Notes: generated by a model from the letters alone, not told the origin. A stretch of DNA of 64,000 bases from Acidobacteriota bacterium (GCA_025463125.1 JAOAPX010000152.1:19816-83815); one strand, 5' to 3'. Shown: positions 7,873-53,824, counted from the first letter of the stretch. Program-made: numbers and translations.

Positions 7873-8025
7873 ATGGCAGACGAAGGTAAACGATGCGGAC
7901 ACGACGGGTGTTTATGCGCAACAACGGGCGATTCGGAATATTGCAGTCCTTATTGCGAAGATGCGGCAGATCAGGATCTGACCGAAATTCGCTGCGACTG
8001 CGGTCATCCCGGCTGCTCCGCTTAA
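7873..8025 (+). CDS. 50-aa cysteine-rich protein, bacterial metallothionein-like (BmtA/SmtA-like)
   Basis: Absent from the ORF track because it is under 60 aa. Translation: MADEGKRCGHDGCLCATTGDSEYCSPYCEDAADQDLTEIRCDCGHPGCSA (9 Cys, 2 His). A GGGAGGG ribosome-binding site lies 6-7 nt upstream, and a strong hairpin terminator lies downstream. Confidence 0.6.
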   Translation: MADEGKRCGHDGCLCATTGDSEYCSPYCEDAADQDLTEIRCDCGHPGCSA

Positions 8026-8146: not shown

Positions 8147-8662
8147 TCAAATGGATGTTTTGCGATGAGCGAAAATTCTTAACAAACCGTTAATAGCCAG
8201 ATGCAAAACCATATAAGCGACGATTGCGATAATAATCGGCAGAGCCAATGTAAAACCGTCTTTCGAAGGGCTCGGAACGATACCCGAAAAAGGCGCGTAG
8301 AAAATGCCGGTTACGCTTTTGATAAATTTTACAAAGCCCGCGCTTTCGCGAGCCGCAAAAAGTTCGAGTAAAAGCCGTATCGCCAGAAGCCCGTAAATAA
8401 CGAAAAAGATATAATCGACCACCTGCGAAACTCTGGCTAGAGCGCGCCCGCGCCCGACTTCCCTTTCCGTTTCCGCGACTTCTTCAACCGCTTTATGACG
8501 CATATTAGCCGCGATATTTTCCACTCGCGCCGCCTGTGAAACGGTCGGCGCGCCGGCATTTGCGGCGATTTCGGCATCGACATCGGCTTGAACCGTCGAT
8601 TTTACGGTTTCGTAATTAATCGCTCTCTGAGCTTCATCCTGTGCTAATTTATTGTCAACCAT
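8147..8662 (-). CDS. YggT-like integral membrane protein with a long soluble N-terminal extension
   Basis: The C-terminal half VVDYIFFVIYGLLAIRLLLELF...FVKFIKSVTGIFYAPFSGIVP plus a second TM helix resembles the YggT family. The N-terminal ~80 aa are hydrophilic. Confidence 0.55.
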   Translation of the reverse strand: MVDNKLAQDEAQRAINYETVKSTVQADVDAEIAANAGAPTVSQAARVENIAANMRHKAVEEVAETEREVGRGRALARVSQVVDYIFFVIYGLLAIRLLLELFAARESAGFVKFIKSVTGIFYAPFSGIVPSPSKDGFTLALPIIIAIVAYMVLHLAINGLLRIFAHRKTSI

Positions 8663-8942
8663 TGATATTCGCCTTTTCTTTTACATCGTTTTTCGCTTCT
8701 TCGCGTCCCTGCGGAGTGTCTTTCGAAGCGGATCTTCCGGCGATGTCTCTTTCGTCGGCATCTCCTTCGGTTTCGTCGCCGCGCCTGATTTGACGCTGAA
8801 TCTCATTTTCATCGATCTGGCTGCCTTCATCGGACAATTCCTTAACGTTCCACCCTTCTCTCTGACCTTCAGCGCTTCCGCGGCTGACGCCGTCTCTCGG
8901 ATCGTCTTCAAGCGATTGCGAATCCTGAACTTCTTCGTGCAT
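8655..8942 (-). CDS. Highly acidic, low-complexity 95-aa protein of unknown function
   Basis: A GGAGG ribosome-binding site lies 4 nt upstream of the ATG. Its stop overlaps the downstream YggT-like start by 8 nt, suggesting an operon. Two other overlapping frames exist, so the call is tentative. Confidence 0.45.
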   Translation of the reverse strand: MHEEVQDSQSLEDDPRDGVSRGSAEGQREGWNVKELSDEGSQIDENEIQRQIRRGDETEGDADERDIAGRSASKDTPQGREEAKNDVKEKANING

Positions 8943-9019
8943 AATTCCTCCGAAAACTACTGAATATTTCCGCGAAAAAAAATATTTACTTTCTAAAACA
9001 TTTCTTCCGCAAACAATGA

Positions 9020-9035
9020 GTCAAATGTCGTGCCA
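9020..9035 (-). promoter_or_regulatory. Degenerate sigma-54-type -24/-12 element
   Basis: Minus strand reads TGGCAC-GACAT-TTGAC. The spacing is correct but the -12 element is GA instead of GC. It lies about 78 nt upstream of the 8942 start. Confidence 0.35.
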
Positions 9036-9104
9036 ATATTAAATGCATTAAATATATACACTTAAATTACAATTTCCCATACCTGTTTCGCTCTTTTCGT
9101 TAAA

Positions 9105-9138
9105 GTAAAAAAAGGAGTGAATATAAAACTCACTCCTT
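9105..9138 (-). terminator. Intrinsic terminator of the 9162-11141 gene
   Basis: Minus strand: AAGGAGTGA-loop-TCACTCCTT followed by TTTTTTT. Confidence 0.7.
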
Positions 9139-9161
9139 ATAAAAGCTCCAGTCTTTCGGAT

Positions 9162-11141
9162 TTACCGAATGTTATTCGGAGCCGAAGCTGTAATACCAAA
9201 CTCCGAACCTTGTCCGAGTTCGATATTGTCACGCCCCTGCAGAATCACCGTGCCTGCGCCGGCGCCTGCACCGACAGCGGCACCGATCGCCGCGCCCTGA
9301 CCGCCACCGGCGATTGCACCGATGATCGCGCCGAGAGCAGCGCCGATTCCCGCTCGAGTTACGGTTTTCGTAGTTTGATTACTGTCGCGAACGGTTCCTT
9401 CATTATTGACCTGAACGTTGTCGCCGTTGGCGGCGCGAACCGAGTCGATAAATCCGGCGAAACGATAAGTTTGACCGTTTGTTAAACGAATCGTATCAAA
9501 TTCCATCGAAAGATTGGCACGACCCGAAACCCGTCCCGATTGATTTGTGTTGGCAATTCGCCCTTCGATAATCGCGCCGCGAAACTGCGAAGGTGAAGTT
9601 ACTTCCAGTTGGAAGCGATCACCGTTCTGGCTGACCTTGGTATCGATCGCGTTGCGAAGAACCGCTGTGATTTTCGTGTTGTTCTGAACTACGAAATCAT
9701 TTAAGTTTCCGGTTCCGCTATTTACATTGCCGTTATCATTGCCGCTCCAGTTTCCGTTATTGGTAACGTTTGACCATTGAGCGACGTTATCGGTTTTGTC
9801 GTAAACGCTGACTGCCGTTACGGCTGTATTCGTATTTTCCAGATAAACTCGTCGCGAAACGCGCAATTGCCCGTTGCTGAGCGGCGTAAAGCTGACGAAA
9901 AAGTCATTCATCCGATCGCCCTCGTAATTGATTGTTACATCGTTTGAGGTAGCCGAGACGCGCGTGTTGACCACTCGACCGTTAGGGCTTGTTTCCGAAC
10001 GCTGAACGTTGTCGGCGGCAAATGAAACCTGCGGCGACATTGAAGAAGCAAGCGATACTTGCTGACCGCGTTTTTCAAGAACAAGCATATCAGGCGGCGT
10101 TAAGCGACGCTCGAGGGTTCCGCGAACGCGATCTTGCTGATTGACGTTTATGCGCCCGCTGGTCAACGCGCGGTTGACGATATCACTTACATTATCGCTC
10201 TGGCTGACGTTTAATCTGTAAGTTCCGGTTAAACGCGTGTCGATATTGCCCGCTACCGGGAAAGTTCTATTGTTCCAATCCCAGCTGACGCGGTAATTGC
10301 CGGCTAAAGTGTTCAAATCGCTGCGCAGAAGATTCCACTGGCGCTGAACTGACGGGCTTAAACGATTTGTGCGAATAAAGCTGTCGATAACCGAAGCGCG
10401 CTGAAGCACTTCTTCGACATCCGCCGAAACCGAATCGCGCTCGTCGAAATTGCGGCGCAGACTGTCGGTAGCATTTTCAAAATCGGTTACGTACTGAGCG
10501 ATATTTTCATCGAATCTCGTACCGTTTCGATTGCTTCTATTAAGCACCGTGTCTACATCGCGCCGGAAAACGTCTGTTCTCTGTTCTATTCGCGCGAGTA
10601 AACTTTGCACTGAAGCGTCGGAAACCATATACGGTCTGGTAACGACCGGAGCTGTAGGCGTGTTTCTGTTATACGGAGCCGTAGCTCTGCCATTCCATGT
10701 CCACGTAACGCGGTAATAGCCGGCTAATGTATTCAAATCATTTCTGATAAGGTTCCATTGATTTTGCGCCTGCACCGAAACGCGGTTATTGCGCATATAC
10801 TCGTTAATGAACAAAGCCCTGTCGAGGATTTCCTGCACATCGGCAGCCGTCGAATTTCGCGAAGAAAAATTATTTCTCAACCGATCCGTAGCATTCTCAA
10901 AGTCGGTAACGAATTCCGTAATATTTTCTTCAAATCTGCTGCCGTCAACGCGGCTGTTATCCAGAGATCGATCTACCTCGCGACGGAAATTGTCGGTTCT
11001 GGTTTCCAATCTGGACAGAAGCGTTTGCATCTGATTATTAGTTACACGATATGGATTTACCTGTGCTGAAGTTTCCCTTGCTGTCGTGAAAACGAAGGCT
11101 AGTAGCGCCATTGTAAAAAAGCTGTATATTTTTGTTCTCAT
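9162..11141 (-). CDS. Secreted protein of unknown function: two ~124-aa tandem repeats, a beta-rich middle region and a C-terminal glycine zipper
   Basis: The signal peptide MRTKIYSFFTMALLAFVFTTARETSAQ starts at 11141, with a GGGAGA ribosome-binding site 8 nt upstream. The internal duplication spans 10266-11057. The GIGAALGAIIGAIAGGGQGAAIGAAVGAGAGAG zipper is encoded at about 9240-9360. Confidence 0.75.
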   Translation of the reverse strand: MRTKIYSFFTMALLAFVFTTARETSAQVNPYRVTNNQMQTLLSRLETRTDNFRREVDRSLDNSRVDGSRFEENITEFVTDFENATDRLRNNFSSRNSTAADVQEILDRALFINEYMRNNRVSVQAQNQWNLIRNDLNTLAGYYRVTWTWNGRATAPYNRNTPTAPVVTRPYMVSDASVQSLLARIEQRTDVFRRDVDTVLNRSNRNGTRFDENIAQYVTDFENATDSLRRNFDERDSVSADVEEVLQRASVIDSFIRTNRLSPSVQRQWNLLRSDLNTLAGNYRVSWDWNNRTFPVAGNIDTRLTGTYRLNVSQSDNVSDIVNRALTSGRINVNQQDRVRGTLERRLTPPDMLVLEKRGQQVSLASSMSPQVSFAADNVQRSETSPNGRVVNTRVSATSNDVTINYEGDRMNDFFVSFTPLSNGQLRVSRRVYLENTNTAVTAVSVYDKTDNVAQWSNVTNNGNWSGNDNGNVNSGTGNLNDFVVQNNTKITAVLRNAIDTKVSQNGDRFQLEVTSPSQFRGAIIEGRIANTNQSGRVSGRANLSMEFDTIRLTNGQTYRFAGFIDSVRAANGDNVQVNNEGTVRDSNQTTKTVTRAGIGAALGAIIGAIAGGGQGAAIGAAVGAGAGAGTVILQGRDNIELGQGSEFGITASAPNNIR

Positions 11142-11226
11142 TGTAATTTCTCCCTTGATCATCGAAATGTTTTGCAAGATAGGGAAAGCATTTTAAACAT
11201 CTCGCAGTGTCACTTCTATACGAGCT

Positions 11227-11242
11227 TGCAATCATCGTGCCA
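11227..11242 (-). promoter_or_regulatory. Sigma-54 promoter (consensus-perfect -24/-12)
   Basis: Minus strand reads TGGCAC-GATGA-TTGCA, 86 nt upstream of the 11141 start codon, in intergenic DNA. Confidence 0.75.
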
Positions 11243-11351
11243 GAAATCTCTCTTTTTTTTAATTAAGCTCGTAATTACGCTTGATATCATTAATCTTACA
11301 AAGATTTAGCGGTCGCCCTTAATTATTTTATTTGTAATAAAGCCGTACAAG

Positions 11352-13229
11352 TCAGACGCTTCTGCGAACCGGAAACTTAACCATAAAGGTTGAACCCTTA
11401 CCTTTTCCATCACTGTCGGCGCTGATTTTGCCGCGATGCAGATTCACGATGTGCTTTGAGATTGTCAAGCCGAGTCCGAGACCGCCGTAGTCGCGTATAT
11501 TCGGATTATCGGCTTGTTTATAGCGCTCAAAAACATACGGCAAAAATTCCCGGCTGATGCCTCTGCCGTCGTCTTTGACGATCATCTGAACATCGCCGTT
11601 CAATTCGCTCACGCTCGTCTCGATTTTTCCGCCGCTTTGCGTAAACTTCACGGCATTGGTCAATAAATTCTGAATAACTATTTTTATTTTTTCCTTGTCG
11701 CCGTAAATCAAATGATGATCCAGCTGATTGAATTTCGATAAAGTGATGTTTTTCTCTTTTGCAAGCGGTTCTATCTGAGAAATCGTCTCTTCAAATAATT
11801 CCGAGAAATCGACGTCTTCGACCTTTAAAACACTTTTACCCGAAATTATCTCCGAGTAATTAAGCAGTTGTTCGACGAGTCTCGCCTGCGAGCGCAAATT
11901 TTTATCGATCTTCTGCAAAGCAAGTTCCTTTGTGCCGCGCGACAGTTCGTGCGTTCTTAAAATTCTCGCCCAGCCGGCAATCGCGTTTAGAGGCGTTTTC
12001 AGCTCGTGCGAGATTATAGAAATGAATTCGTCTTTGGAGGTATTGGCTTCTTCTGCGATTTGTCTTGCCTGGCGCTCGTTTTCCAGCAAAATTTCTCTTT
12101 GTTTCTGCATTTCCAGAAGCTCGCCGGCGGTTTTCTGCGCTTTTGCGCGCGAAGCCGCTTCCCAGTAAGTCATACCGAAAAGCAGGAAACTGAAGGCGAA
12201 ACCGCACAAAAGAATCAGCGGCGTCCAGCCGACGCTCGATTGCTCCGTAAAAATCGGCAGAGTATTGTATTGCAGTATCCATTTTCTGCCGATTATTTCT
12301 ATGCTGTTTTGCGCTTCGTGTTTTTCTTCCGTTATATTTGCAAAGTTCAGCGGAACGGAATTATTACTTTCTTTATAAGCCAGAAGATTTTGCTCGCTTA
12401 CCTCGCCGTCAAAAACCTTGAAACGAATGTCCTGTTCGGGAATTGTTTCATAAACGTCATTAAAAAAATTGTTGGCTTTTAAGGCGATAAAGACAAAGCC
12501 CAGCAAATCGCCTTTAAATTGCCTGCTTGAAGCGGAAATCTCGCTTTTTTTATAAACGGGCAGAAAAATCACGAAACCTTCCTGTCCGCCGCTTTTCCCG
12601 TCACCGGCGAAAACCACTTTTGAGCTTGCCGCCGCCTCGCCGGTTTCTTCGGCGCGCCGCATCGCTTCGCGGTAATGCGGCTGCGTCGTCATATCGAAAC
12701 CGATAATTTTTTTATTGTGATCCTCAAACGGTTCGATATAAACCACAATTTGACCACTGCCCGTTTCGTTTGGCGGATAGATTTTGAAATCGCTAAAACC
12801 GTCGGCGTTCATACGCTTGTTTAAAGCTTCATAATCCTGAGTTTTAACGGTTTGGGCAAAACCCATTCCCTGTACGCCCGAATCGTGATTTTGAAGATTA
12901 AGATAACTTACATACTCGGAAAATTTACCGTGGGTCAATTCCGGCGCGGTCTCAATAAAGCCTTTGCTGCCTTTCAGCAAAGCCACGTATAAATTTATTT
13001 TGCTTTCAATCGACGATTCGAGAAGACTGATGTGATTGCTGAATCTGATTGTATCCTTGCTTTTCGCGCTCTTAAAAAAATTGTAAGTAACACCGACAGT
13101 CAGCAGTATCAACACGGCTAGAACCAAATATGAGAGATTGAAAATTTGCGAGTCTTTCTCCTTGTTAAAATTTTCGATTGGATCCGACATGGCTGCACCG
13201 CTTATTTTCCTGAAACTATTGCAAAACAA
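11352..13229 (-). CDS. Sensor histidine kinase with a periplasmic CHASE-like domain
   Basis: TM helix, a ~280-aa extracytoplasmic domain (GMGFAQ...IVVYIEPFEDHNKKIIGFDM resembles CHASE), a second TM helix, H-box SHELKTPLNAI, and HATPase G-boxes. The start may instead be 13190. Confidence 0.85.
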   Translation of the reverse strand: MFCNSFRKISGAAMSDPIENFNKEKDSQIFNLSYLVLAVLILLTVGVTYNFFKSAKSKDTIRFSNHISLLESSIESKINLYVALLKGSKGFIETAPELTHGKFSEYVSYLNLQNHDSGVQGMGFAQTVKTQDYEALNKRMNADGFSDFKIYPPNETGSGQIVVYIEPFEDHNKKIIGFDMTTQPHYREAMRRAEETGEAAASSKVVFAGDGKSGGQEGFVIFLPVYKKSEISASSRQFKGDLLGFVFIALKANNFFNDVYETIPEQDIRFKVFDGEVSEQNLLAYKESNNSVPLNFANITEEKHEAQNSIEIIGRKWILQYNTLPIFTEQSSVGWTPLILLCGFAFSFLLFGMTYWEAASRAKAQKTAGELLEMQKQREILLENERQARQIAEEANTSKDEFISIISHELKTPLNAIAGWARILRTHELSRGTKELALQKIDKNLRSQARLVEQLLNYSEIISGKSVLKVEDVDFSELFEETISQIEPLAKEKNITLSKFNQLDHHLIYGDKEKIKIVIQNLLTNAVKFTQSGGKIETSVSELNGDVQMIVKDDGRGISREFLPYVFERYKQADNPNIRDYGGLGLGLTISKHIVNLHRGKISADSDGKGKGSTFMVKFPVRRSV

Positions 13230-13454
13230 TTTTTGTTTAATTAGCGTTTATGCAATGATTATGCCTCTAAGCGCTGGTATAGCCTGATAAAGGGTTTAAC
13301 CGCTGTAAACTTTAGCAGTCAGATATTATTCGAGTATTTCCGGTATGATATTTCGTATCAATTGCTTACAGCTTTTTTCCTCGTTATATTACAAATTATT
13401 TTTTATTTAGTATTAAACGTCGTAAAAGCATTCAAATTACGCGTTTCTTTAATC

Positions 13455-13470
13455 TGGCATTGAATTTGCA
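13455..13470 (+). promoter_or_regulatory. Sigma-54 promoter
   Basis: TGGCAT-TGAAT-TTGCA, 59 nt upstream of the 13529 ATG. Confidence 0.7.
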
Positions 13471-13528
13471 AAATAAAATTGAAAAATGATTGTTTTACAA
13501 AATTTTATTCACAAAAGGAGTCAGAAAT

Positions 13529-13693
13529 ATGGCTGAAGAAAACGGAACAGGAAATAATTTGATTTGGGCGATCGCAATGATTATTATCGTTGCGATTATT
13601 GCCGGAGCTGTATATTTTGTTGCCTTAAAAGGCGATACTAAACCTGATAAAATAGATATTAATGTCAGCGCTCCGAGCGGTTCGACAAGATAA
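13529..13693 (+). CDS. 54-aa single-pass membrane protein
   Basis: An AAGGAG ribosome-binding site lies 8 nt upstream of the ATG. Translation: MAEENGTGNNLIWAIAMIIIVAIIAGAVYFVALKGDTKPDKIDINVSAPSGSTR. A terminator follows. Confidence 0.55.
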   Translation: MAEENGTGNNLIWAIAMIIIVAIIAGAVYFVALKGDTKPDKIDINVSAPSGSTR

Positions 13694-13711
13694 TTCAAAT
13701 ATTTATATTAA

Positions 13712-13756
13712 ACAGAAAAGGCGTTCTCATAAAAAAGAACGCCTTTTCTGTTTTTC
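13712..13756. terminator. Bidirectional intrinsic terminator
   Basis: acagaaaaggcgttc / gaacgccttttctgt is a 15-bp stem with U-tracts on both strands. Confidence 0.75.
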
Positions 13757-13776
13757 CGTTGTTTTCCATCAAACGA

Positions 13777-15303
13777 TTATAATCTTTCGTCGATATTGTG
13801 CCTTTTAATCATTCCGTAAAGTCTCGGACGATAAAGCCCTAAAAGATTAGCCGCAGCCTGCTTGTTGCCTTTGGTTCTTTTCAGCGCCGCCATTACCACG
13901 ACATTTTCGATTTCGTTAAAGACGTCCTTTTGTTCGCTTCCGTCAACCGGATCGGGCAGTCTTTCAACGATAAATTTACCGACTTCTTCAAAAAGCTCTT
14001 CATCCGATAAATTCTGTTTACCGAGCAGGCTTCCGCCGTTGGACGAGCCGGCGGCGGCGGCAACGAAAGATTCCACACCGGAAGTTTTATCGCGTTCCGG
14101 TATATCTCTTTTAATGTCTGCGAAAGAAATCGTATTGTCGAGATTTTTCGGTATATCTAAATTGTTGATTTTGCCGCCTTTGCTCAAAAGAATCGCCCGC
14201 TCGATGACGTGCTGCAGCTCGCGCACGTTGCCGCGCCAGTTGTAATTGAGCATTTGATCATAAGCGTGCTGCGAAAATTCGGGATTTTCGCGTTTATATT
14301 TATCGGCGTAAATATGCAGAAAATGTTCTGCGAGCATCGGCACGTCTTCCATTCTTTCGCGAAGCGGCGGAATTTTTATTTCGATCGTGTTTATACGGTA
14401 ATATAAATCTTCGCGTAAATTTCCGTCCTGAATAGCGTCAAAGGGATTCCTGTTTGTCGCGGAAATCAAGCGAAAATCCACTTCCTGCGGCTTATCGCTG
14501 CCGACGCGGTAATAAATTTTTTCCTGCAAAACCCTGAGCAGCTTCGGCTGCAGATCGACCGGCATTTCACCGATTTCGTCGAGCAGAATGCTTCCGCCGT
14601 TCGCCTGCCCGATAAATCCGACTTTATCGTTGACGGCGCCCGTAAAAGAACCTTTGATATGCCCGAACAATTGCGATTCGATCAAATCTTTCGGCAGCGC
14701 CGAACAGTTTACTTTGACAAAAGGTTTTTTCGAACGATGGCTTTTATAATGAATTGCGTTGGCGATTACTTCTTTACCCGTTCCGGATTCTCCGAGAATC
14801 AATATATTGGCGTCGGATTCGGCGACGCTGTCAATGATTTCAAAAATATTCTGCATCGAACGGCTGCCGCCGATAATGCCTTCGTATGATGTACGGCTGG
14901 AAAGCTTGTTTCTCAATTCCCTGATTTCCGCCGCCTGCTGTTTTCTTTCAACCGCTTTTTCTATTAAAAGAAAAAGTTCATCAAATTCGACGGGTTTTTC
15001 AATAAAATGAAACGCACCGGCTTTCGTTGCTTCAATTACTTTTTCCGTCGAGCCAAAGCCCGTAATCATTATAATTTCCGTTTCCGGAGCGATTTCTTTT
15101 AAACGACGAACCATTTCAATGCCGTTAATATCAGGCAAATTTAAATCTGTCAGGATAATGTCAAATTCATTTTCCTGTACAAAACTCAGCCCTTTTGCGC
15201 CGCAATCAGCCGTTGTCGTCGCAAAGCTTTCAGCCTCGAGCTGAAACTTCAAAAGATCGAGCGTTGTTTTGTCATCATCGATAACCAGTGCTTTATATGT
15301 CAT
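13777..15303 (-). CDS. Sigma-54-dependent response regulator (NtrC family bacterial enhancer-binding protein)
   Basis: REC domain (DIILTDLNLPD), AAA+ Walker A GESGTGKE, sigma-54 contact loop GSFTGA, and a C-terminal Fis-type HTH AAANLLGLYRPRLYGMIKR. Confidence 0.92.
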   Translation of the reverse strand: MTYKALVIDDDKTTLDLLKFQLEAESFATTTADCGAKGLSFVQENEFDIILTDLNLPDINGIEMVRRLKEIAPETEIIMITGFGSTEKVIEATKAGAFHFIEKPVEFDELFLLIEKAVERKQQAAEIRELRNKLSSRTSYEGIIGGSRSMQNIFEIIDSVAESDANILILGESGTGKEVIANAIHYKSHRSKKPFVKVNCSALPKDLIESQLFGHIKGSFTGAVNDKVGFIGQANGGSILLDEIGEMPVDLQPKLLRVLQEKIYYRVGSDKPQEVDFRLISATNRNPFDAIQDGNLREDLYYRINTIEIKIPPLRERMEDVPMLAEHFLHIYADKYKRENPEFSQHAYDQMLNYNWRGNVRELQHVIERAILLSKGGKINNLDIPKNLDNTISFADIKRDIPERDKTSGVESFVAAAAGSSNGGSLLGKQNLSDEELFEEVGKFIVERLPDPVDGSEQKDVFNEIENVVVMAALKRTKGNKQAAANLLGLYRPRLYGMIKRHNIDERL

Positions 15304-15384
15304 AATTATTTGTAATTTATTGTATCAAAAATAGACAATACCCAAAACATCTCAGGTTTAACAATCAATTACCGTCTAAGTTAG

Positions 15385-15420
15385 AAAAAAAGAGGCAAGT
15401 TCCCCTTAACTTACCTCTTT
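15385..15420 (-). terminator. Intrinsic terminator upstream of the activator gene
   Basis: Minus strand: AAGAGGTAAGTT-loop-AACTTGCCTCTT (one mismatch) followed by TTTTTTT. Confidence 0.6.
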
Positions 15421-15566
15421 CGAGCGTTCACTCTCCCCGGATACCGTAAAATAAATAAAAAATGAAACAGATTAAAAATTCGGAAGTTATAAAACAATTG
15501 CCTGCCTTAAACATTTAGTAAAATTAACCCAAATCCCCCAATTATAAATACAGCCAACTTCTATGC
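15385..15566 (-). ncRNA. Candidate ~180-nt sigma-54-dependent transcript (sRNA, 28-aa sORF carrier, or attenuated leader of the activator gene)
   Basis: Bounded by the sigma-54 element at 15577-15592 and the terminator at 15385-15420. It contains only a 28-aa hydrophobic ORF (15428-15514) that lacks a ribosome-binding site. Confidence 0.3.
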
Positions 15567-15576
15567 CCAACTAATT

Positions 15577-15592
15577 TGCAACGAGTGTGCCG
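15577..15592 (-). promoter_or_regulatory. Sigma-54 promoter
   Basis: Minus strand reads CGGCAC-ACTCG-TTGCA, with GG and GC at the correct spacing. Confidence 0.55.
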
Positions 15593-15896
15593 AAACAGCT
15601 AACTTACGTTTTTGCTTAAAGTTACGGCAAGAGGATATTTTCCATCCAACAAATACCGTACTATAATAATACATAAAAATCTCTTTTTTATAAGTGTATT
15701 ATCTCTAATCATTTACAGCTAAGATTTAGACTTTAAAGAATATTTATCATCCGGCGAGTTTTATTTCGTTCGGCGGAAGATTCCCCGTCTGAACCTGTGC
15801 AGGTCTTGTACTGAATTGATACTAATTTTTATATTAATTATTTTGCGGATTAGAGTAATTATATGTAAATACTGGGCTTAATGGAGTTCAGTCAAT

Positions 15897-15912
15897 TGGC
15901 ACACTAATTGAA
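15897..15912 (+). promoter_or_regulatory. Degenerate sigma-54-type element
   Basis: TGGCAC-ACTAA-TTGAA (-12 is GA instead of GC), 56 nt upstream of the 15968 ATG. Confidence 0.35.
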
Positions 15913-15967
15913 TTAAAGGTTTTCACCAATGCTTTGAAAGCAAAATTTGACAAGAGGGTGAAAACAG

Positions 15968-16120
15968 ATGTTAGAAACTTTAATTATTATTTTACTTGTT
16001 TTGTGGCTATTAGGACTAATAGCGGGTCCTGCATCGCTGGGCGGATGGATTCATCTTTTATTATTAGTCGCTTTAGCTGTATTTGTAATCAGATTAGTTA
16101 GCGGCAGAAGAGTTGTGTAA
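15968..16120 (+). CDS. 50-aa two-helix membrane protein (Lmo0937-family-like)
   Basis: Absent from the ORF track because it is under 60 aa. Translation: MLETLIIILLVLWLLGLIAGPASLGGWIHLLLLVALAVFVIRLVSGRRVV. A GAGGGTG ribosome-binding site lies upstream. Confidence 0.55.
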   Translation: MLETLIIILLVLWLLGLIAGPASLGGWIHLLLLVALAVFVIRLVSGRRVV

Positions 16121-16279
16121 CTTATAAATTGAACGGCAACAGATTTTTGCAGTTAATCCTTTTTTGCCAAACATACCTCGCTTTTGATTAAATCAAAACG
16201 AGGTATTTCTGCTTGTAAAATTTTAAATAATTTTCTACAAAAGTTGAAAATATTTTGCTCGTGTAATCAAATCTATTAT

Positions 16280-18268
16280 ATGAATACAAATTTCGATTAT
16301 AACCCTACCCCGAACTCTCAACCGATTTTCAATTTTAACGAGCAGATAAAATCTATCTTTACAGAGATATTTGCTTTTTTCGGGACGGTTAACAAACAAG
16401 GGTATTTATTAAATTTAAGCGGCAATATTTTAGAAAAGACCAATTTAAATGCAAAATTATTAATTGGTCAGAAGTTTTCCGAGACGGTTTTCTGGCAATC
16501 TTCGGAACATACTTCCAGGATTCTTGACCAGGCGATAGAAGAAGCAGCCATGGGAAAGCCCGTAAAATCTCTGCTTAATTTCAGAATCAGTTCCGACAAC
16601 AAACTAATAATCGAATTGCATCTTTATCCTTCGCCGGAAAACGCGCCGGAAATCTTTTTCTGCGCCTATGACGTTACCGAACGCGAACGCGAAGTCGAAT
16701 ACCATAAACAGCGCAGCGAGCAATTGCTTTACGCCGCCGAAAGCGCCGACATCGGTTTATGGTCGTGGGATTTAACGGATAACACGTTTTATTCGACGCC
16801 GAAATGCAACGAGTTTTTCGAAACGAAAGCGTACGAACCGCTGATGTACGAATCATTTGTCGGCATCGTTCACCCGGAAGACCGCGAGCGCGTCGAAGAG
16901 GTTTTGCAGAATTCGCAATCGACCGGGACAGAATTTAACGAGCAATTCAGAGTTGTTTATTCAAACGGCAATACCGAATGGATTTCAGCGCGCGGAAAAA
17001 CCTTTCTTGACGCCGAAGGCGAACCGAATAAAACGATGGGCGTCGTTCGTAAAATCACCGAACAAAAAATTGCCGAAGAAGACCTTTCGAGAGTTTACGA
17101 CCGCGAGAAAAAAGCGCGCGACGAAGCCGAAGACGCCAATCGCGCCAAAGATTTTTTTCTCGCCTTTGTGTCCCACGAACTTCGCTCGCCGCTAAACGCG
17201 ATTTTGGGTTGGTCGAAAATTCTTTTGACGAAAAAAGTGGACGAAGAAACGCAAACCAGTGCGCTCGAAACGATCGAACGAAGCGCTCGCGCGCAAGCAC
17301 AGCTCATCAACGATCTGGTCGATTCGGCGCGCATTACTTCGGGCAAGCTGCGGCTCGAATTTCATCCGGTTAACTTATACGAAATCGTAAAAACCGTTTT
17401 CCATTCACAAAAACCGTCGGCTGAAGGGAAAAACATTAATCTTCAGTTTGATTATACAAGCGAGGAAATACCGGTTTTTGCCGACGCGGGACGGCTGCAG
17501 CAAGTTTTTAATAACTTAATTTCCAATGCTTTAAAGTTTACGCCCGAAGGCGGAATGATTTCCGTTCGCGCCGAAACGCAAAATGAATTCGCGAAAGTGA
17601 CGGTCAATGATAACGGGCAAGGAATCAGCCCGGAATCGCTGCCGAATATTTTTCGTCAATTTTCGCAGGGCAACGAATCGGATTTACGCGATCGCGGCGG
17701 ACTCGGTTTAGGATTGTCAATTGTGAAAATTCTGGTCGAAAAACATAACGGAAAAGTGCAAGCCGACAGCGCGGGCGTCGGTAAGGGATCGTCCTTTACC
17801 GTTTTCTTACCGTTATACAAGGAAAATCGAGCGAATTCTGACGACCGCGAAAGCGAAACCGAACAAAGCAATGAAAAACCTTTGCGCAAAGTTAAAATTC
17901 TGCTTGTAGAAGACGATGAAGATTCGCGCGAAGTTTTGGCGCTTTTCCTCGAACAGTGCGGCGCGCTGGTAATAAGCGCCGATTCGACAAAAGCCGCGAT
18001 GAGATTGCTGGAAACTTCCGTAAATGATCTGCCTGATGTAATTATTTCCGATCTGGCGATGCCGGATGAAGACGGTTATTCATTTATCAGCCGGATTCGC
18101 AAATTGCCGCAAAAAGACGGCGGAGAAATTTCCGCGATCGCTCTCAGCGCATTTGCGACAAAAGAAAATAAAGAAAAAGCTTTCGAGCTTGGATTTCAAA
18201 AATACAACACGAAACCGTTCGAGCCGGATTTATTGATTCAGGAAATCTTATCGCTCGTTAAAAAATAA
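16280..18268 (+). CDS. Hybrid sensor histidine kinase (PAS domains, HisKA, HATPase, C-terminal receiver)
   Basis: H-box SHELRSPLNAI, G-boxes GGLGLGLSIV, receiver motifs VEDDEDSREV...DVIISDLAMPDEDG. The start is uncertain (16184 or 16280). Confidence 0.85.
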   Translation: MNTNFDYNPTPNSQPIFNFNEQIKSIFTEIFAFFGTVNKQGYLLNLSGNILEKTNLNAKLLIGQKFSETVFWQSSEHTSRILDQAIEEAAMGKPVKSLLNFRISSDNKLIIELHLYPSPENAPEIFFCAYDVTEREREVEYHKQRSEQLLYAAESADIGLWSWDLTDNTFYSTPKCNEFFETKAYEPLMYESFVGIVHPEDRERVEEVLQNSQSTGTEFNEQFRVVYSNGNTEWISARGKTFLDAEGEPNKTMGVVRKITEQKIAEEDLSRVYDREKKARDEAEDANRAKDFFLAFVSHELRSPLNAILGWSKILLTKKVDEETQTSALETIERSARAQAQLINDLVDSARITSGKLRLEFHPVNLYEIVKTVFHSQKPSAEGKNINLQFDYTSEEIPVFADAGRLQQVFNNLISNALKFTPEGGMISVRAETQNEFAKVTVNDNGQGISPESLPNIFRQFSQGNESDLRDRGGLGLGLSIVKILVEKHNGKVQADSAGVGKGSSFTVFLPLYKENRANSDDRESETEQSNEKPLRKVKILLVEDDEDSREVLALFLEQCGALVISADSTKAAMRLLETSVNDLPDVIISDLAMPDEDGYSFISRIRKLPQKDGGEISAIALSAFATKENKEKAFELGFQKYNTKPFEPDLLIQEILSLVKK

Positions 18269-21240: not shown

Positions 21241-22593
21241 TTAAGCCTGGCGAATCCATTTCCAGACTTCGGGAATGGTCGCCCGTTTGCCGTACATCAG
21301 CATTCCGACGCGGTAGACGCGCGCCGCGAGCCAGACGAGCGCGGCAATCGCGAGGCTGTTTATCAAAATTGAAAGCCCGATCTGCCAAATGGGCGGAGTT
21401 TCGGCGAGAATTCGAACGGGCATTGTAATCGGAGCGAAAAACGGCGCGATAGAAACCCAGAACGAAAGGCTCGAATTCGGATCGCGGATAACGGCAAAGC
21501 TGAAATAAAAGCCGATCAGCAGAAGCATTATCGGCGGAAAAGAAAACTGCCCGCCTTCCTGCACGCTCGTCACCATCGCGCCGATAAGAGCAAAGATCGA
21601 AGCGTATATAAAAAATCCGAGCAGAAAATAAATAAAAAACAGGAGAATCATCAGCGGCGTAATGTTCGGAATCGCTATGTCCATTCCGGCTGCCGTAAAC
21701 ATTGTCGCGCCGAATCCGGCTAAAATCACCGCCGAAATTATCCAGATCGAAAGCTGCGTAAGTCCCGCCAGACCGACGCCGACGAGCTTGCCCATCATCA
21801 GTTCGAACGGCTTTGCCGAGGAAAACAGTATTTCAGCAATCCGCGTTTCTTTTTCCTCGACGACCGCAGACATAATCATCTGCCCGTAAATCGCCAGCGT
21901 GATATAAATCATCAAACCGATAATAAACGCGGCGATAAAGCTGCTGTCGGAATCCTTCTCGTTCCCTTTTTCATCAACGCCCTTCGCTTCAAAATCAACA
22001 TTCCGGCTCAACGTTTTTATTTTCGATTCATCGATCCGGGCGTCGGCGAGCCTCTGCGAGCGGACGGCTTCGTTCACCGCGTCTTTTAAGATTCTTTCGG
22101 TAACGAAATCTCCGGCTTTGCGCGAGAAAAATTCATATTTCGCGACCGGCGCGTCGAATTCTTTCGGAATCAAAAGATACGCGTCCAATTCCTTTCCAAT
22201 GATTTTTTCGTTCAGCTCCCGGCGAATTTGTTCGGGCGATTTTTCGGCGCCGCTGTATTCGGCAAAAGCGAAACTCTCGCCCAATTGCTGAACGCCGCGC
22301 TGCATTTTTTCTTCTCCGGAGGCATTTATATCCGTCACGGCGTCTTTTGTCGCCTGCCGGGATTTTTCCAGTAATTTTTCCGACGCGAGACTTTCCCGTA
22401 AACGCGGCTCGATTTTTCCGGTCGGATCAACGATCGCGATTCGGGTCGGCTCGCCCTTGATTGAAAAAATTATCGCCGGAACAACCGCAAATCCCGCGGC
22501 GATTACCGGAAAAAGCAAAGTTCCGATCAGAAAAGCCCATTTCAGAACGATTTTTTTGTATTCGTGTTTTACAACGGCTAAAAATTTACGCAT
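21241..22593 (-). CDS. ABC-2 type transporter permease
   Basis: N-terminal TM helix, a large extracytoplasmic loop, then 5-6 C-terminal TM helices. It overlaps the upstream ATPase gene by 8 nt. Confidence 0.8.
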   Translation of the reverse strand: MRKFLAVVKHEYKKIVLKWAFLIGTLLFPVIAAGFAVVPAIIFSIKGEPTRIAIVDPTGKIEPRLRESLASEKLLEKSRQATKDAVTDINASGEEKMQRGVQQLGESFAFAEYSGAEKSPEQIRRELNEKIIGKELDAYLLIPKEFDAPVAKYEFFSRKAGDFVTERILKDAVNEAVRSQRLADARIDESKIKTLSRNVDFEAKGVDEKGNEKDSDSSFIAAFIIGLMIYITLAIYGQMIMSAVVEEKETRIAEILFSSAKPFELMMGKLVGVGLAGLTQLSIWIISAVILAGFGATMFTAAGMDIAIPNITPLMILLFFIYFLLGFFIYASIFALIGAMVTSVQEGGQFSFPPIMLLLIGFYFSFAVIRDPNSSLSFWVSIAPFFAPITMPVRILAETPPIWQIGLSILINSLAIAALVWLAARVYRVGMLMYGKRATIPEVWKWIRQA

Positions 22594-39907: not shown

Positions 39908-42900
39908 TTACCAGCTAAATCTCATCGATAATTCGACGCGGCGATTTGCAGCGCTTCCGCCGCCGCCTCCGCCGAAGCCGCCAAACCCGCCCGAGATTGA
40001 TGTGGATCGTCCGAAGCGGCTCGAATTAAGATTTCCGACAGGCGTGCCGTAATTAACGTTATTGAACAAATTATTGATATTTATTCCGACGTTTAAATTG
40101 TAAGGCTTTCTTTCGCCGCCTCCGCCGAAGCCTCCGCGACCGCCACCCATTCCGCCGCGTCCGCCGCCCATTCCGCCGCCGCCGCCGCCACCGCGCTGAC
40201 CGCCACCACCGCCGCGCTGACCGCCGCCTGGCTGATCGTTTTGAGCGACAGTATCACCGGAACCGCCGAAACCGAAGTTTTTATTGATTCTTAAGTTAAC
40301 GCTGAAAAACGTCGGGCTTTGCCCGTAATTGCGCGGGATTATGGCGTTCGGATCGTTGTCGCCGACATTGCAGAATGAGTTTATCAAGTTCAAAAAATTG
40401 CAACGCGCGCTCAATTCCCCGTAAGTCGGGCGTTCTGTAAACAGTGAGTCTCCATTTACGTCAACCCCTCTTGTAATGTTAAACGGTCTTCCGGAATTGG
40501 CTACAATAAACGGGCTCAGCGAGATTCCGTAGGGAATCGTAAAATTGCCGCCTAAAGTAAAGTTATGGCGAATATCAAAGGAAGATCTGCCGAATTCACC
40601 GCTTGTGTCGTAGCTGTAAGCCGGAAAACTTCCCGCCCCATCGCTGTCGCCCTCGGCAAAACCGAGTCGATAATTACCGAAAATAGAAACTCCCTGCGAA
40701 AGCATAGTTCTCAGATTGATAACCATCTGATGTTGATTCAAAACTCCGCTCGATTCGTACTGGTAGATATTTCCGAGTGTCGGGTCAGGTCGCGGCGCAT
40801 TTAGGCAATTTACCTGTAGAGGGCAAATCGGCGCATTAATATTTCTCGATCTGAGAACGTGCAAAGTTCTCGAACCGATATAAAACGCAGATAAAGTCGT
40901 TCTCGAAGGCAATTGTCTTTCGACTCCGAGCGTGGTTTGAATGATATACGGAGCCTGTAAATCGTCTGAAATCGTTCTGATGACGCTTGAAGAAGGCAAA
41001 AGCGATTGTATCTGAGCGACAGTCGGAGCGCCGGTTACGCCGCTCAATGTAAAGACGGGCTGATTTAAAAGCGAGATAGCCGCAGCTCTTCGAACCGGAT
41101 CGGGATCATTAGAGTTAACAATAAAGTTTAACTGATTTGAGCCGTTAAATCTTCTCGACTGCAAGCTCAAATTTTCGCTGAACCGCTCATAAAAGACGCC
41201 GATTCCGCCGCGAATAACCGTTTTCGCAGGCGTTCCTCCGCCTGCTCCCGGCGACCACGCGAATGAAAATCGCGGAGCGAAATTCATATTGTCTTTGATA
41301 TTGGTTTGATTTTCGTAGCGCAATCCGAAGCTTAAGGTTAAAGCCGGATTTATACGCCAGTCGTCGGTCACAAACAAACCGACATCGGTTTGTGAAATAC
41401 CGGCTAAAGGATCGCCCGCCGAGATTGAAAACTGTGTCGGATTAAATCTCGGGTCGGTATTTCCGAGCAAATTCTGCCGGTATTGTTCGAGCGGCGAAAC
41501 TGACGGTGAAACGATACAAGTATTATCCAGCTGCGGATTACAGGTCGCAGTTCTTCTAACTTCCGGGATGCCCGGAAACGTAAAAGTTCCGCCGAAGTTG
41601 TTTTCCGAACGATCCTTTAAGGTAATTCCGCGCAGACGCACGCCGAACTTAACCGCGTGCTGCGAATTTGCGCCGAACGAGGTCGTCGTATAGTTTTGCA
41701 GTTCCCAGCTGTTCGTTCGGTTAAAACTCAAACCGATTTGCGAGCCGCCGCCGACAAATGCCGAAGGAACGCTGATCGTCGGTATCGAATTATCGCCCGT
41801 TTGCTCGCGATTATTAAATTCATACTGAAAACGAGTTTCGTTGATCGTTTTCGGATTGATAATCATCGTTTCGGTCAAGCGAAATTCATGCTGTCTGTTT
41901 TCCGTTTCATATGCGCGGCTCGGCAAAGAAGTTTCGCTAATGCCCTGATTCTTAAAGCTCGCGCGCGTAAAGCTATAGCGCATGACCAGCGTGTTGTTTT
42001 GATTTATCTGGTAATCAAATCGAGGGCTGATGGAAAGTCTGCGGTTAGGAACCTGAAATTCCTCGTTAAAATTTACGACATTAAATGTCGGGTCTAAAAC
42101 AAGCGCGTTGACCACAACGTTGCTGTCATCCTCGCGGTTGCTGACATCGATAAAAAACGAAGATTTTCCTTTTTGCACGGGACCGGAAACATTGCCGCCG
42201 TAAAATCTTCTCTGGCTCGGCGCGCGATTCAAGGCAAACGGATTGCGTGAATTAAGACGCGCGTCGCCAAAATTGAAAAACGCCTGTCCGCGCCATTTAT
42301 CCGTTCCAGGTCTGGTTAAAACTTCGATTCGACCGAATCCCAAACGATCGAATTCGGCTGAAAAAGGATTCTGGTTAATGCGAATTTCGCGAATCGATTC
42401 TCGCGGAGGAAGTCTGCCGCCCGTAAAACCGTCGATGTAAATTTGTCCGCCGTTCGGTCCGGCTGAAGGTCCGGCTAAAGCCTGCAAAGCGGCTTCGAGC
42501 TCGTCCGGATCATCCGGTAAAGCTTCCAAATCTTCCTGGCTTAAAACCGTCGCACCGGCATTGCTGTTCGGGTCGGTTGAAACTTCGCTGCCGCTTGAAA
42601 CGTCAACTTGTTCTTCGACGCCTTCGACCGTCAAAACTACATTTAACGATTCTTCCGCGCCTGCTCCGATTTCCACAGCCGCATTTTCATAAAAAGCAAA
42701 ATTCGGCGCGCTGACCCGCAAAATATAAGTTCCCGGCGCGAGTCCGCTGATCGTAAATTCGCCGCGCTGGTCGCTTGTCGTTGTTTTTTCTTTGCCGTCG
42801 GATGAAACGGCAATAACGTTCGCGCCGACAACGATGGAACCGAGCGCGTCAGTTACCTGCCCGGATAAGCTTCCCGTTTGCTGCGCGAAAGTATTTGAAT

Positions 42901-42952
42901 TTATAAATAAAGATAAAATTCCGATTAATAAAAAAGACTTAAAATATTTCAT
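39908..42952 (-). CDS. Large outer-membrane beta-barrel (TonB-dependent-receptor-like) with an N-terminal carboxypeptidase-regulatory-like domain
   Basis: Signal peptide, a CarboxypepD_reg-like segment (GSLSGQVTDALGSIVVGANV...GTYILRVSAPNF), about 900 aa with alternating beta-strand character, and a terminal aromatic residue (RFSW). It contains Gly/Arg/Met-rich inserts. Confidence 0.8.
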   Translation of the reverse strand: MKYFKSFLLIGILSLFINSNTFAQQTGSLSGQVTDALGSIVVGANVIAVSSDGKEKTTTSDQRGEFTISGLAPGTYILRVSAPNFAFYENAAVEIGAGAEESLNVVLTVEGVEEQVDVSSGSEVSTDPNSNAGATVLSQEDLEALPDDPDELEAALQALAGPSAGPNGGQIYIDGFTGGRLPPRESIREIRINQNPFSAEFDRLGFGRIEVLTRPGTDKWRGQAFFNFGDARLNSRNPFALNRAPSQRRFYGGNVSGPVQKGKSSFFIDVSNREDDSNVVVNALVLDPTFNVVNFNEEFQVPNRRLSISPRFDYQINQNNTLVMRYSFTRASFKNQGISETSLPSRAYETENRQHEFRLTETMIINPKTINETRFQYEFNNREQTGDNSIPTISVPSAFVGGGSQIGLSFNRTNSWELQNYTTTSFGANSQHAVKFGVRLRGITLKDRSENNFGGTFTFPGIPEVRRTATCNPQLDNTCIVSPSVSPLEQYRQNLLGNTDPRFNPTQFSISAGDPLAGISQTDVGLFVTDDWRINPALTLSFGLRYENQTNIKDNMNFAPRFSFAWSPGAGGGTPAKTVIRGGIGVFYERFSENLSLQSRRFNGSNQLNFIVNSNDPDPVRRAAAISLLNQPVFTLSGVTGAPTVAQIQSLLPSSSVIRTISDDLQAPYIIQTTLGVERQLPSRTTLSAFYIGSRTLHVLRSRNINAPICPLQVNCLNAPRPDPTLGNIYQYESSGVLNQHQMVINLRTMLSQGVSIFGNYRLGFAEGDSDGAGSFPAYSYDTSGEFGRSSFDIRHNFTLGGNFTIPYGISLSPFIVANSGRPFNITRGVDVNGDSLFTERPTYGELSARCNFLNLINSFCNVGDNDPNAIIPRNYGQSPTFFSVNLRINKNFGFGGSGDTVAQNDQPGGGQRGGGGGQRGGGGGGGMGGGRGGMGGGRGGFGGGGERKPYNLNVGININNLFNNVNYGTPVGNLNSSRFGRSTSISGGFGGFGGGGGGSAANRRVELSMRFSW

Positions 42953-45499: not shown

Positions 45500-46081
45500 C
45501 TAAATTTGTTTGCGGCGAAACAAAAGACGTGAAAAGATTACGGCTGAAAATCCGAAAATAACTGTAAATAAAGCGATCGAAACGGTCGAGCTAAAAACGA
45601 ACTGGAACAAAAGCGACCGCACAATAACAATGATTCCGAGGGCAATGTCGTAAATCAGGTGAAAGGCAAAGCTGCCGACGACAAGAAACTGTTCGAAAAC
45701 TCTGCCGAACGAAAACAAAACGCTTTTCGCTTCTGCGCCGAGACCGATTAAAACCAGCAAAAAAAGCGCGGAACAAATTAAAAGAGCGTTAAATCTTTCG
45801 CTTGAGCGGCGCAGACCGCTGACGCGGCTCTCGGCATTGGCAACGACAACTTTCGTAAAATTTTCGGGAAGCTCGAATTTTTCTTCTTCCAGAGCGAAAT
45901 CCAAAGCGCGAAGCAATTTCTTTTGTTGATTGAGTTCTTCAGCGCAGCTTTCGCAAACCGCCAGATGCATTTCAAGCTCGAGTTCTTCGCGCTGGGATAG
46001 CTCGCCGTCGATATAAGCGGCAATATCTGCGCGCTGACACTCGTTTGAAATTTCTACGTCCTGAAAACTCATTTTTATCAA
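45500..46081 (-). CDS. Anti-sigma factor (zf-HC2 type), membrane-anchored
   Basis: HLAVCESCAEEL matches the H-x3-C-x2-C zinc motif. C-terminal TM helices. Confidence 0.75.
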   Translation of the reverse strand: MIKMSFQDVEISNECQRADIAAYIDGELSQREELELEMHLAVCESCAEELNQQKKLLRALDFALEEEKFELPENFTKVVVANAESRVSGLRRSSERFNALLICSALFLLVLIGLGAEAKSVLFSFGRVFEQFLVVGSFAFHLIYDIALGIIVIVRSLLFQFVFSSTVSIALFTVIFGFSAVIFSRLLFRRKQI

Positions 46082-46108: not shown

Positions 46109-46483
46109 CTATTTTAAGAATTTAATGGTCAAAGGATATTCCCAGAATTCCCCGTTGTACGCTTTGACAGCCCCGACGATCGGAAACGCGACGCTTAAAA
46201 CCATCAGCGCGATAAAGCCCAGAAACCCGATTAAAACGATGGCTAAAATTCCGCTCACCACGCTGTAAATCAAAGCGGAAAGCATCCAGTTAGCAATCAT
46301 TTTGCCGTGCGCGTCCAGAGCCGGGATTTTATCTTTTTTCATCTGCCAGATTACGATCGGCGCAATAATGCCTGCCGGCGGAAGGATAAAATTAAAAAGC
46401 TGCGACAAATGCAAAAACATTCCGAGTTGTTTTTGTTCGGGAGTTTGAAGCTGCGACGGCGGTTGATGCTGCATCTGATTCAT
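46109..46483 (-). CDS. DUF4870-like small membrane protein
   Basis: 124 aa. LHLSQLFNFILPPAGIIAPIVIWQMKKD...DAHGKMIANWMLSALIY is typical of DUF4870. Confidence 0.65.
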   Translation of the reverse strand: MNQMQHQPPSQLQTPEQKQLGMFLHLSQLFNFILPPAGIIAPIVIWQMKKDKIPALDAHGKMIANWMLSALIYSVVSGILAIVLIGFLGFIALMVLSVAFPIVGAVKAYNGEFWEYPLTIKFLK

Positions 46484-49356: not shown

Positions 49357-49373
49357 GTTTACCGCTCAACTCG

Positions 49374-51959: not shown

Positions 51960-52138
51960 AATTTTGAGTTGAATTGGATTATTTAAAGACTGCAAAAGCT
52001 TGTGTAACTGCAAACTTCACACGCCCGCGGCACCGCAAAGTTTCAAAAGTTTCACGGAGAAACTCGAACAAAATCATTTCATTTTGCAATAATTATTCGA
52101 TTACTTCAATATAATCAACTAAATAATCAACGAAATAT

Positions 52139-53821: not shown

Positions 53822-53824
53822 AAA

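Follow-up and report, generated by a model that had tools for sequence, protein, structure and literature searches.

A candidate local sigma-54 regulon with conserved promoter-like sites around an NtrC-family activator gene in uncultured Pyrinomonadaceae

In Escherichia coli and Salmonella, the ZraPSR system joins a histidine kinase and a sigma-54 activator to divergent sigma-54 promoters with a central enhancer region, is autoregulated, and has its main target in the periplasm or envelope. PspF, which lacks a receiver domain and is controlled by PspA, serves a small dedicated sigma-54 regulon (pspABCDE/pspG) of membrane-associated and small membrane proteins linked to envelope stress, and NtrBC, also autoregulated, acts at glnAp1/glnAp2 through enhancer sites that activate the sigma-54 promoter and also overlap a sigma-70-type promoter. 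To our knowledge, almost no regulation has been characterised in the Pyrinomonadaceae (Acidobacteriota), which are abundant in soils and rarely cultured. Here we describe a locus at ~9000-16000 of a 64-kb stretch of DNA (hereafter the window; GCA_025463125.1, JAOAPX010000152.1:19816-83815) from an uncultured member of this family (Blastocatellia), where six sigma-54-type promoters, P1 to P6, cluster around the gene of an NtrC-family activator. We found no paper on sigma-54 promoters in Acidobacteriota, nor on rpoN in Blastocatellia.

The closest described layout is that of GlrK/GlrR (QseE/QseF) and glmY in Enterobacteriaceae, where a sigma-54-dependent small RNA (sRNA) gene directly precedes, on the same strand, the two-component genes encoding the NtrC-family regulator that activates it (PMC3045617, PMC6075780, PMC8745638). 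In the present locus, too, a predicted RNA gene would lie upstream of an independently transcribed activator gene (PMC3045617); both loci have dyads of the TGT...ACA type (TGTC-N10-GACA upstream of GlrR-dependent promoters; PMC3045617), and both have a link to the envelope, a presumed one here (PMC3045617, PMC6075780, PMC8745638). They differ in that the present activator scores 356 bits against a GlrR equivalog cutoff of 763, the RNAs share neither sequence nor an Rfam relationship, the present dyad spacing is one base shorter, and the present locus, in a different phylum, has six promoters and protein targets. ZraPSR resembles the locus in its kinase and sigma-54 activator, its divergent promoters around a shared enhancer region, its autoregulation and its envelope target, each of the last two a prediction here; the present activator, by contrast, reaches 346 bits against the ZraR cutoff of 760, the targets are unrelated to ZraP, and there are more promoters and an RNA gene. 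The predicted output, a small dedicated regulon of membrane-associated and small membrane proteins, recalls PspF, from which the present activator differs in having a REC domain, and no Psp proteins appeared in our scans of the window. Finally, like NtrBC the locus would encode an autoregulated NtrC-type two-component system, and an element just upstream of the activator gene, TTTGATACAAT, overlaps a half-site or full site of the dyad described below, as at glnA; by analogy, the activator might repress its own basal promoter. In contrast to NtrBC, no nitrogen-assimilation genes occur at the locus, and the activator scores 406 bits against the NtrC cutoff of 559.

Six predicted sigma-54-type promoters and a shared upstream dyad

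We consider it probable that the locus is a compact local sigma-54 regulon of the adjacent REC-AAA+-HTH activator, as an initial annotation of this DNA had proposed and as comparative conservation and a shared upstream activator-type motif now support. That annotation had listed five promoters, P1 to P5, as 16-mers which we read at exactly the coordinates and strands given and which are all intergenic; four had been placed 55-90 nt before open reading frame (ORF) starts, in agreement with the gaps in Table 1, and the fifth, P4, does face a predicted terminator-bounded transcript. The number needed correction, since a sixth site, P6, before the gene for a CHASE-domain kinase, had been overlooked. 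P2, P3, P4 and P6 fit TGGCAC-N5-TTGCW, with the GG and GC doublets spaced by exactly 10 bp, whereas P1 and P5 combine a perfect -24 element, TTG and spacing with a non-canonical -12 element and are sigma-54-like by context.

The sites stand out locally. With a sigma-54 weight matrix, the five best matches in the window all fell between 11227 and 15912. The interval 9000-16000 held 5 matches of at least 13 bits against 0.165 expected, a result equalled by 0/5000 shuffles, and the other 57 kb held none. Among ~25-35 orthologous Pyrinomonadaceae loci, each of the six sites is found again before the same gene, unchanged in relative position and strand, in up to 24-26. The activator's closest relatives, at 62-90% identity, are from Pyrinomonadaceae and Blastocatellia metagenome-assembled genomes (Acidobacteriota) and also from soil metagenome contigs; a clade with activators 58-60% identical (L018-L026, L098-L103) was left out of the counts because the enhancer motif is absent there and gene order differs. 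The best upstream site was found as expected for the DUF5670 gene in 17/20 loci, the CHASE kinase in 14/14, the activator in ~26 and the glycine-zipper (gly-zipper) gene in 13/21, where the rest are mostly alignment-offset cases. P2 is kept 69-93 nt upstream of the gly-zipper gene in those 13 loci and P6 54-96 nt upstream of the kinase start in all 14 kinase-bearing loci, while the orthologues of P1, the weakest of the six in the window, reach 13-14 bits in 9 further loci. As negative controls, the vWA and APP1 genes on either flank had nothing above 7 bits at a plausible distance. Comparative conservation is the decisive evidence for these predicted promoters.

The initial annotation had also suggested a search for activator-binding sites in the divergent region and upstream of the other promoters, and this uncovered a common motif. 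Shared k-mers among the four intergenic regions of the window were A/T-rich words only; the motif emerged solely from orthologous regions, when expectation-maximisation was applied to the orthologues' two divergent intergenic regions, with the P1 and P2 regions outside the training set. Its consensus is tTTGTATGAtTTTaTTACA. Because it correlates with its own reverse complement (r=0.73), we read it as a dyad, TGTAw-N7-wTACA, a symmetry that fits a dimeric Fis-type HTH. Matches of at least 13 bits numbered 8 in the window against 1.35 in shuffles, 6/8 of them inside the four promoter regions, and nearly every match of 14 bits or more in ~280 kb of orthologous loci is in one of these intergenic regions. 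The candidate upstream activating sequences (UAS) of five promoters have their centres between -99 and -126 and that of P1 at -43; in form and position the sites are like those of enhancer sites of NtrC-family activators such as GlrR (PMC3045617). The site shared by P3 and P6 is kept in 17/17 orthologous regions, often with a second copy 21 bp away; P2 orthologues have a same-orientation match of at least 13 bits 85-108 nt upstream in 9/12 loci; and the P1 dyad keeps its position in L001 and lies 59-74 nt upstream in L006, L007, L009 and L010.

Two other matches, at 16272-16290 (14.5 bits, overlapping the ATG of a hybrid kinase gene) and 22555-22573, are not conserved in orthologues and were treated as chance. 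A weak sigma-54-like 16-mer, CGGCAAAATGATTGCT (46292-46307, minus strand, 11.8 bits), between an extracytoplasmic function (ECF) sigma factor gene (46500-47114) and a zf-HC2 anti-sigma gene (45500-46081), is also probably chance, because no enhancer motif lies nearby.

Table 1. Coordinates of predicted regulatory elements and genes at the locus
Feature	Position	Strand	Description
P1, sigma-54-type, GA at -12	9020-9035	-	TGGCACGACATTTGAC; before acidic 95-aa and YggT-like genes; 77 nt to start codon; 11 bits
P2, sigma-54-type, canonical	11227-11242	-	TGGCACGATGATTGCA; before gly-zipper gene; 85 nt to start codon; 19.1 bits, top match in the window
P3, sigma-54-type	13455-13470	+	TGGCATTGAATTTGCA; before 54-aa gene; 58 nt to start codon; 15.8 bits
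P4, sigma-54-type	15577-15592	-	CGGCACACTCGTTGCA; upstream of short RNA and activator; 14.8 bits
P5, sigma-54-type, GA at -12	15897-15912	+	TGGCACACTAATTGAA; before DUF5670 gene; 55 nt to start codon; 13.3 bits
P6, sigma-54-type	13251-13266	-	AGGCATAATCATTGCA; 60 nt upstream of CHASE kinase ATG; 13.2 bits
UAS-like dyad, P1	9042-9062		Centred ~-43, unusually close; 13.9 bits; weakest site
Candidate UAS, P2	11333-11351		CTTGTACGGCTTTATTACA; centred ~-126, 90 nt upstream of P2; 18.2 bits; outside training set
Candidate UAS, P3 and P6	13352-13370		~-120 from P3 start, ~-121 from P6; 18.2 bits
Candidate UAS, P4	15655-15675		Centred ~-99; 15.9 bits; second site here in 10/10 divergent regions
Candidate UAS, P5	15807-15825		TTAGTATCAATTCAGTACA; centred ~-107; 18.0 bits; 64-87 nt from P5 in orthologues
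Predicted non-coding transcript, ~182 nt	15383-15566	-	P4-driven; 3' module CCGGGGAGAGUGA, 12-bp hairpin with AAGGGG loop and U7
Proximal element of activator	15319-15329	-	TTTGATACAAT; probable extended -10 (TGnTACAAT) overlapping UAS half-site
NtrC-family enhancer-binding protein	13777-15303	-	Pfam REC PF00072, Sigma54_activat PF00158 (E=4e-68), HTH_8 PF02954
CHASE-HisKA-HATPase sensor histidine kinase	11352-13190	-	Pfam domains
PAS-HisKA-HATPase-REC hybrid histidine kinase	16280-18268	+	Conserved neighbour downstream of DUF5670 gene
Acidic 95-aa protein, hydrophilin-like	8655-8942	-	Isoelectric point 4.4, grand average of hydropathy -1.64, 10.5% Gly
171-aa membrane protein, YggT-like	8147-8662	-	Start overlaps stop of acidic gene; synteny conserved
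659-aa secreted gly-zipper protein	9162-11141	-	Sole Pfam match C-terminal Gly-zipper_YMGG
54-aa single-pass membrane protein	13529-13693	+	Downstream of P3
Bidirectional terminator hairpin	13712-13755		Between 54-aa gene and activator gene; read from the sequence
50-aa DUF5670/lmo0937-family membrane protein	15968-16120	+	Pfam E=1e-11

The -12 classes and alternative readings of the sites

The GA at -12 that the initial annotation had pointed out at P1 and P5 is present and, beyond that, strictly conserved within each gene class. When the classes were counted with a matrix blind to positions -12 and -11 and the dinucleotide was read at -13/-12, GC was found at every site of P2 (14/14), P3 (24/24), P4 (24/24) and P6 (18/18), or 80/80 in total. 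GA was found in 23/24 P5 sites (the other GT) and 9/10 P1 sites (the other GG), a total of 32/34 and never GC, while background matches in the same count had mixed dinucleotides. Because the class-wise counts are strict and the background is mixed, GA at -12 is a fixed, gene-specific feature rather than noise. At the GC of the -12 element, sigma-54 Region I and the HTH nucleate the fork junction by which the closed complex is kept locked (PMC5095919), and a conserved C-to-A change there plausibly tunes promoter behaviour. We put forward only tentatively, as a joint proposal somewhat more apt to fail than to hold, that the -12 cytosine is a conserved tuning element across two fixed classes and that the P4 product represents a new sigma-54-dependent regulatory RNA family of the Pyrinomonadaceae.

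We observed directly the motifs with their clustering and their positional and strand conservation, the upstream motif common to the promoters, and which genes the locus contains; from these observations we infer that sigma-54 and this activator act at these sites. Several points weigh against that interpretation. Two promoter classes lack the canonical C at -12; P1 is weak in the window; and the motif upstream of P1 lies nearer than enhancer sites normally do. The adjacent activator is the motif's presumed binder by adjacency and co-conservation. A scan of all large ORFs found no rpoN in the window, the weight matrix was our own approximation of the published consensus TGGCACG-N4-TTGCW, and the locus counts include related genomes and so are not independent events.

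How far these points favour other readings can be judged from the same data. A loose IUPAC pattern with one mismatch allowed is not enriched over the window (8 found vs 5.4 expected), as would suit a chance pile-up of sigma-54-like 16-mers in AT-rich intergenic DNA; we rejected this reading, which we regard as very improbable indeed, on the local enrichment that no shuffle reached and on position- and strand-specific conservation over dozens of genomes while flanking intergenic sequence diverges. The promoters could instead be real and the dyad not the adjacent activator's, being a bending site of the integration host factor (IHF) type or the site of another regulator, with the promoters perhaps answering to different enhancer-binding proteins. 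Some copies do fit the IHF consensus WATCAANNNNTTR (consensus from PMC3045617), among them TATCAATTGCTTA within 13352-13370, and the P1 copy sits at an IHF-like position; yet the motif is palindromic, its information sitting mainly in outer TGTA/TACA arms that mirror each other, whereas IHF sites are asymmetric; the distances of -99 to -126 are typical for enhancer sites, the P3/P6 region has copies in tandem at a 21-bp spacing, and the distant clade, with activators of only 58-60% identity, does not have the motif. We think this account improbable. Also unlikely, in our estimate, is that P1 and P5 are not functional sigma-54 promoters and are conserved for some other reason or serve a different sigma factor or regulator. 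In favour of this reading, both are missing the C of the otherwise near-invariant GC at -12, the fork-junction position (PMC5095919), and P1 reaches only 11 bits in the window. On the other side, they retain a perfect TGGCAC at -24, TTG at -15 to -13 and exact spacing, lie 50-90 nt upstream of conserved genes in 24 (P5) and 10 (P1) loci, and, for P5, have a candidate UAS at the same distance as canonical promoters; moreover, the distant relatives L018 and L021 have a canonical GC promoter at the DUF5670 gene.

The predicted P4 transcript and a probable basal promoter of the activator

From a predicted start near 15566, P4 would drive a transcript of 80-210 nt across loci. Its 3' module, aligned from 15 loci, consists of YCGGGGAGMGUGA followed by a hairpin with an A-rich GGGG loop, in which 5 stem pairs show compensatory changes. 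A covariance model of the module found exactly one copy per locus, always upstream of the activator, and no extra copies in the window or in 50 loci, where its other hits were generic terminators only. A search of the whole window gave no Rfam 15 match at gathering score, and relaxed settings over 15250-15950 returned noise (E above 1). The promoter and hairpin are conserved and there is no conserved ORF; however, the U-tract is weak in 6/15 loci, the 5' part varies, and the window holds no target.

Two other roles were rejected: a small protein, there being no conserved ORF and, in five loci, no ORF of at least 12 aa; and a CsrA-type GGA sponge, the loop GGA being kept in only 7/15 aligned sequences. 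As separate observations, 8/10 of the RNA homologues that bear GGGGAG contain a mini-ORF of 5-8 codons (15385-15443, minus strand) with a GUG/AUG/UUG start 1-2 bases after GGGGAG, a spacing too short for a normal Shine-Dalgarno start, and a stop inside the 5' arm of the conserved hairpin (e.g. MNARKR*). In L081 (870-960), the 5' part of the RNA is tandemly duplicated (ttttattcattttgaagttcttaagatatt twice), as is TTTGATACAAT, and a sigma-70-like match (TGGGCA-17-TATAAT, 10/12) lies just downstream of P4 at 15541-15569 (minus strand).

Each of 23 orthologous loci has a single copy of the 11-mer TTTGATACAAT, which invariably lies shortly before the activator ATG, although the exact distance varies; in L090, L091, L094 and L095 it forms the right half of a full enhancer site. 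In L002, L096 and L102, the segment comprising P4, the RNA and DUF5670 is replaced by the 3' end of another gene, and loci without P4 still retain TTTGATACAAT. Since it resembles an extended -10, precedes the activator once per locus and is kept without P4, we take TTTGATACAAT as the activator's likely basal promoter and possibly also an operator; its overlap with the dyad suggests that the activator binds at its own basal promoter. The gene that replaces the segment in L096 and L102 is Cys/His-rich and HNH-like.

The P4 product might act in trans as an sRNA or in cis as a leader of the activator mRNA, its hairpin modulating read-through or stability. In L015, L017, L023 and L093, only 49-82 nt, without any RNA module, separate the end of the P4 16-mer from the activator ATG, and hairpins without a good U-tract, as found in 6/15 loci, would terminate poorly; for these two reasons P4 looks like an ancestral autoregulatory promoter, and it may be the activator's autoregulatory promoter in the more distant relatives. 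The poorly conserved 5' part, a whole fold no stabler than shuffles (z=-0.6) and the absence from the window of any complementary target or complement of the G-rich motif also speak for a leader. Against it stand the strong intrinsic terminator (12 bp and U7) in the window and 8 other loci, the activator's own promoter-like element downstream of the hairpin and kept in loci without P4, an AAGGGG loop that stays constant as the stem co-varies, a constraint beyond what termination requires, and the experimentally established glmY-glrK-glrR layout, which is the same (PMC3045617). We therefore treat the cis-acting leader as a serious alternative to a trans-acting sRNA, one whose chances we would put somewhat short of even.

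Encoded proteins and the proposed regulon

The conserved gene order runs vWA, hybrid kinase, DUF5670, a divergent region, short RNA, activator, small membrane-protein gene, a second divergent region, CHASE kinase, gly-zipper, acidic and YggT-like genes, and APP1, and gene models in the window agree with independent gene calls on JGI contigs of the same organism. The activator combines a REC domain, an AAA+ sigma-54 interaction domain with an intact loop (GSFTGA, which swaps with GAFTGA across orthologues) and a C-terminal Fis-type HTH, as in response-regulator-type members of the NtrC class. It falls below every NCBIfam equivalog cutoff tried (NtrC, AtoC, ZraR, GlrR, LuxO), the best being AtoC at 411 bits against 714, and by these scores is not an orthologue of any named family. 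Pfam domains agree with the earlier statement that two histidine kinases flank it; either may be the cognate kinase, the CHASE kinase being missing from some orthologous loci and the hybrid kinase being the steadier neighbour.

The target genes listed in the initial annotation (gly-zipper, acidic and YggT-like, two tiny membrane proteins and a possible sRNA) held under comparative analysis. An AlphaFold model of the gly-zipper protein (38 sequences; mean predicted local distance difference test score, pLDDT, 68.7) comprises a signal peptide, two 4-helix bundles, a beta-barrel, a second beta domain and a C-terminal glycine zipper. Foldseek matched the barrel with its helical lid (residues ~300-450) to fatty-acid-binding proteins (FABP/calycin-like) in the PDB, with E ~1e-4 and target-normalised template modelling (TM) scores of 0.6-0.67. 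A PDB sequence search with the gly-zipper protein gave no match. Its more than 1000 homologues are all unnamed and come from Pyrinomonadaceae or Acidobacteriota wherever a source is given. The acidic 95-aa gene is also called in independent JGI contigs, and its product had no family match in Pfam and NCBIfam scans; the 171-aa protein is termed YggT-like only, as its Pfam YGGT match (E=0.0019, 19 bits) lies below the gathering cutoff of 27. The 54-aa protein corresponds to an ORF of ~53 aa with a Shine-Dalgarno sequence, 47-63 nt from the promoter, kept in 18/18 loci. The 50-aa protein belongs to DUF5670 (45.2 bits vs cutoff 23.5; NCBIfam NF033488, 44.7 vs 30).

Convergent to the YggT-like gene lies a 50-aa acidic ORF rich in Cys (8 Cys; 7873-8025, plus strand). 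It has a good ribosome-binding site and no Pfam match, and the gene calls on two independent JGI contigs include it; its product may be a small metal-binding protein. Elsewhere the window encodes, on the minus strand, a cluster like those for type II secretion or type IV pili (48715-55063; a secretin with a cohesin domain, a T2SSE ATPase, T2SSF and a prepilin-type protein) and a large CarboxypepD_reg outer-membrane barrel protein (39908-42952), together with the housekeeping genes for GroEL, IF-2, NusA, RimP and IMPDH.

In the regulon that we propose, a sensor kinase, either the adjoining CHASE kinase or the PAS hybrid kinase, would phosphorylate the activator, which would bind the TGTAw-N7-wTACA dyads centred ~100-125 nt upstream and remodel sigma-54 RNA polymerase at the six promoters. 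The predicted outputs are the secreted 659-aa protein (lipid-binding-like barrel, glycine-zipper anchor), an acidic hydrophilin-like protein and a YggT-like membrane protein, the 54-aa and 50-aa (DUF5670) membrane proteins, a short non-coding RNA just upstream of the activator gene, and the CHASE kinase itself, whose expression from P6 would imply positive feedback. Basal expression of the activator gene would still come from TTTGATACAAT, where its own promoter and a half-site of this dyad overlap. To judge from composition and weak homology, the role may be protection of the envelope or membrane, perhaps under osmotic or drying stress; the earlier label of an envelope or stress module fits the composition of the targets and stays, as there, a conjecture about function. 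Sigma-54 control of envelope functions and the cell exterior is a known cross-phylum pattern (PMC3162934).

An activator with a local sigma-54 regulon is a normal arrangement for enhancer-binding proteins; what is unusual here is that two promoter classes have a conserved GA at -12 and that an undescribed short RNA is predicted upstream of the activator. The locus offers a testable regulon, with six promoters, an enhancer consensus, an activator and two candidate kinases, and gives a handle on more than 1000 "hypothetical" secreted glycine-zipper proteins. Two classes with a strictly conserved GA amount to a natural experiment on what the -12 element does; if our proposal is right, the base at -12, where the fork junction locks the closed complex, could set a different threshold, leakiness or timing. 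Likewise, the G-rich single strand and AAGGGG loop of the P4 RNA would be its functional face, and the short RNA would extend the glmY-type design, an sRNA gene beside its own sigma-54 activator, to another phylum.

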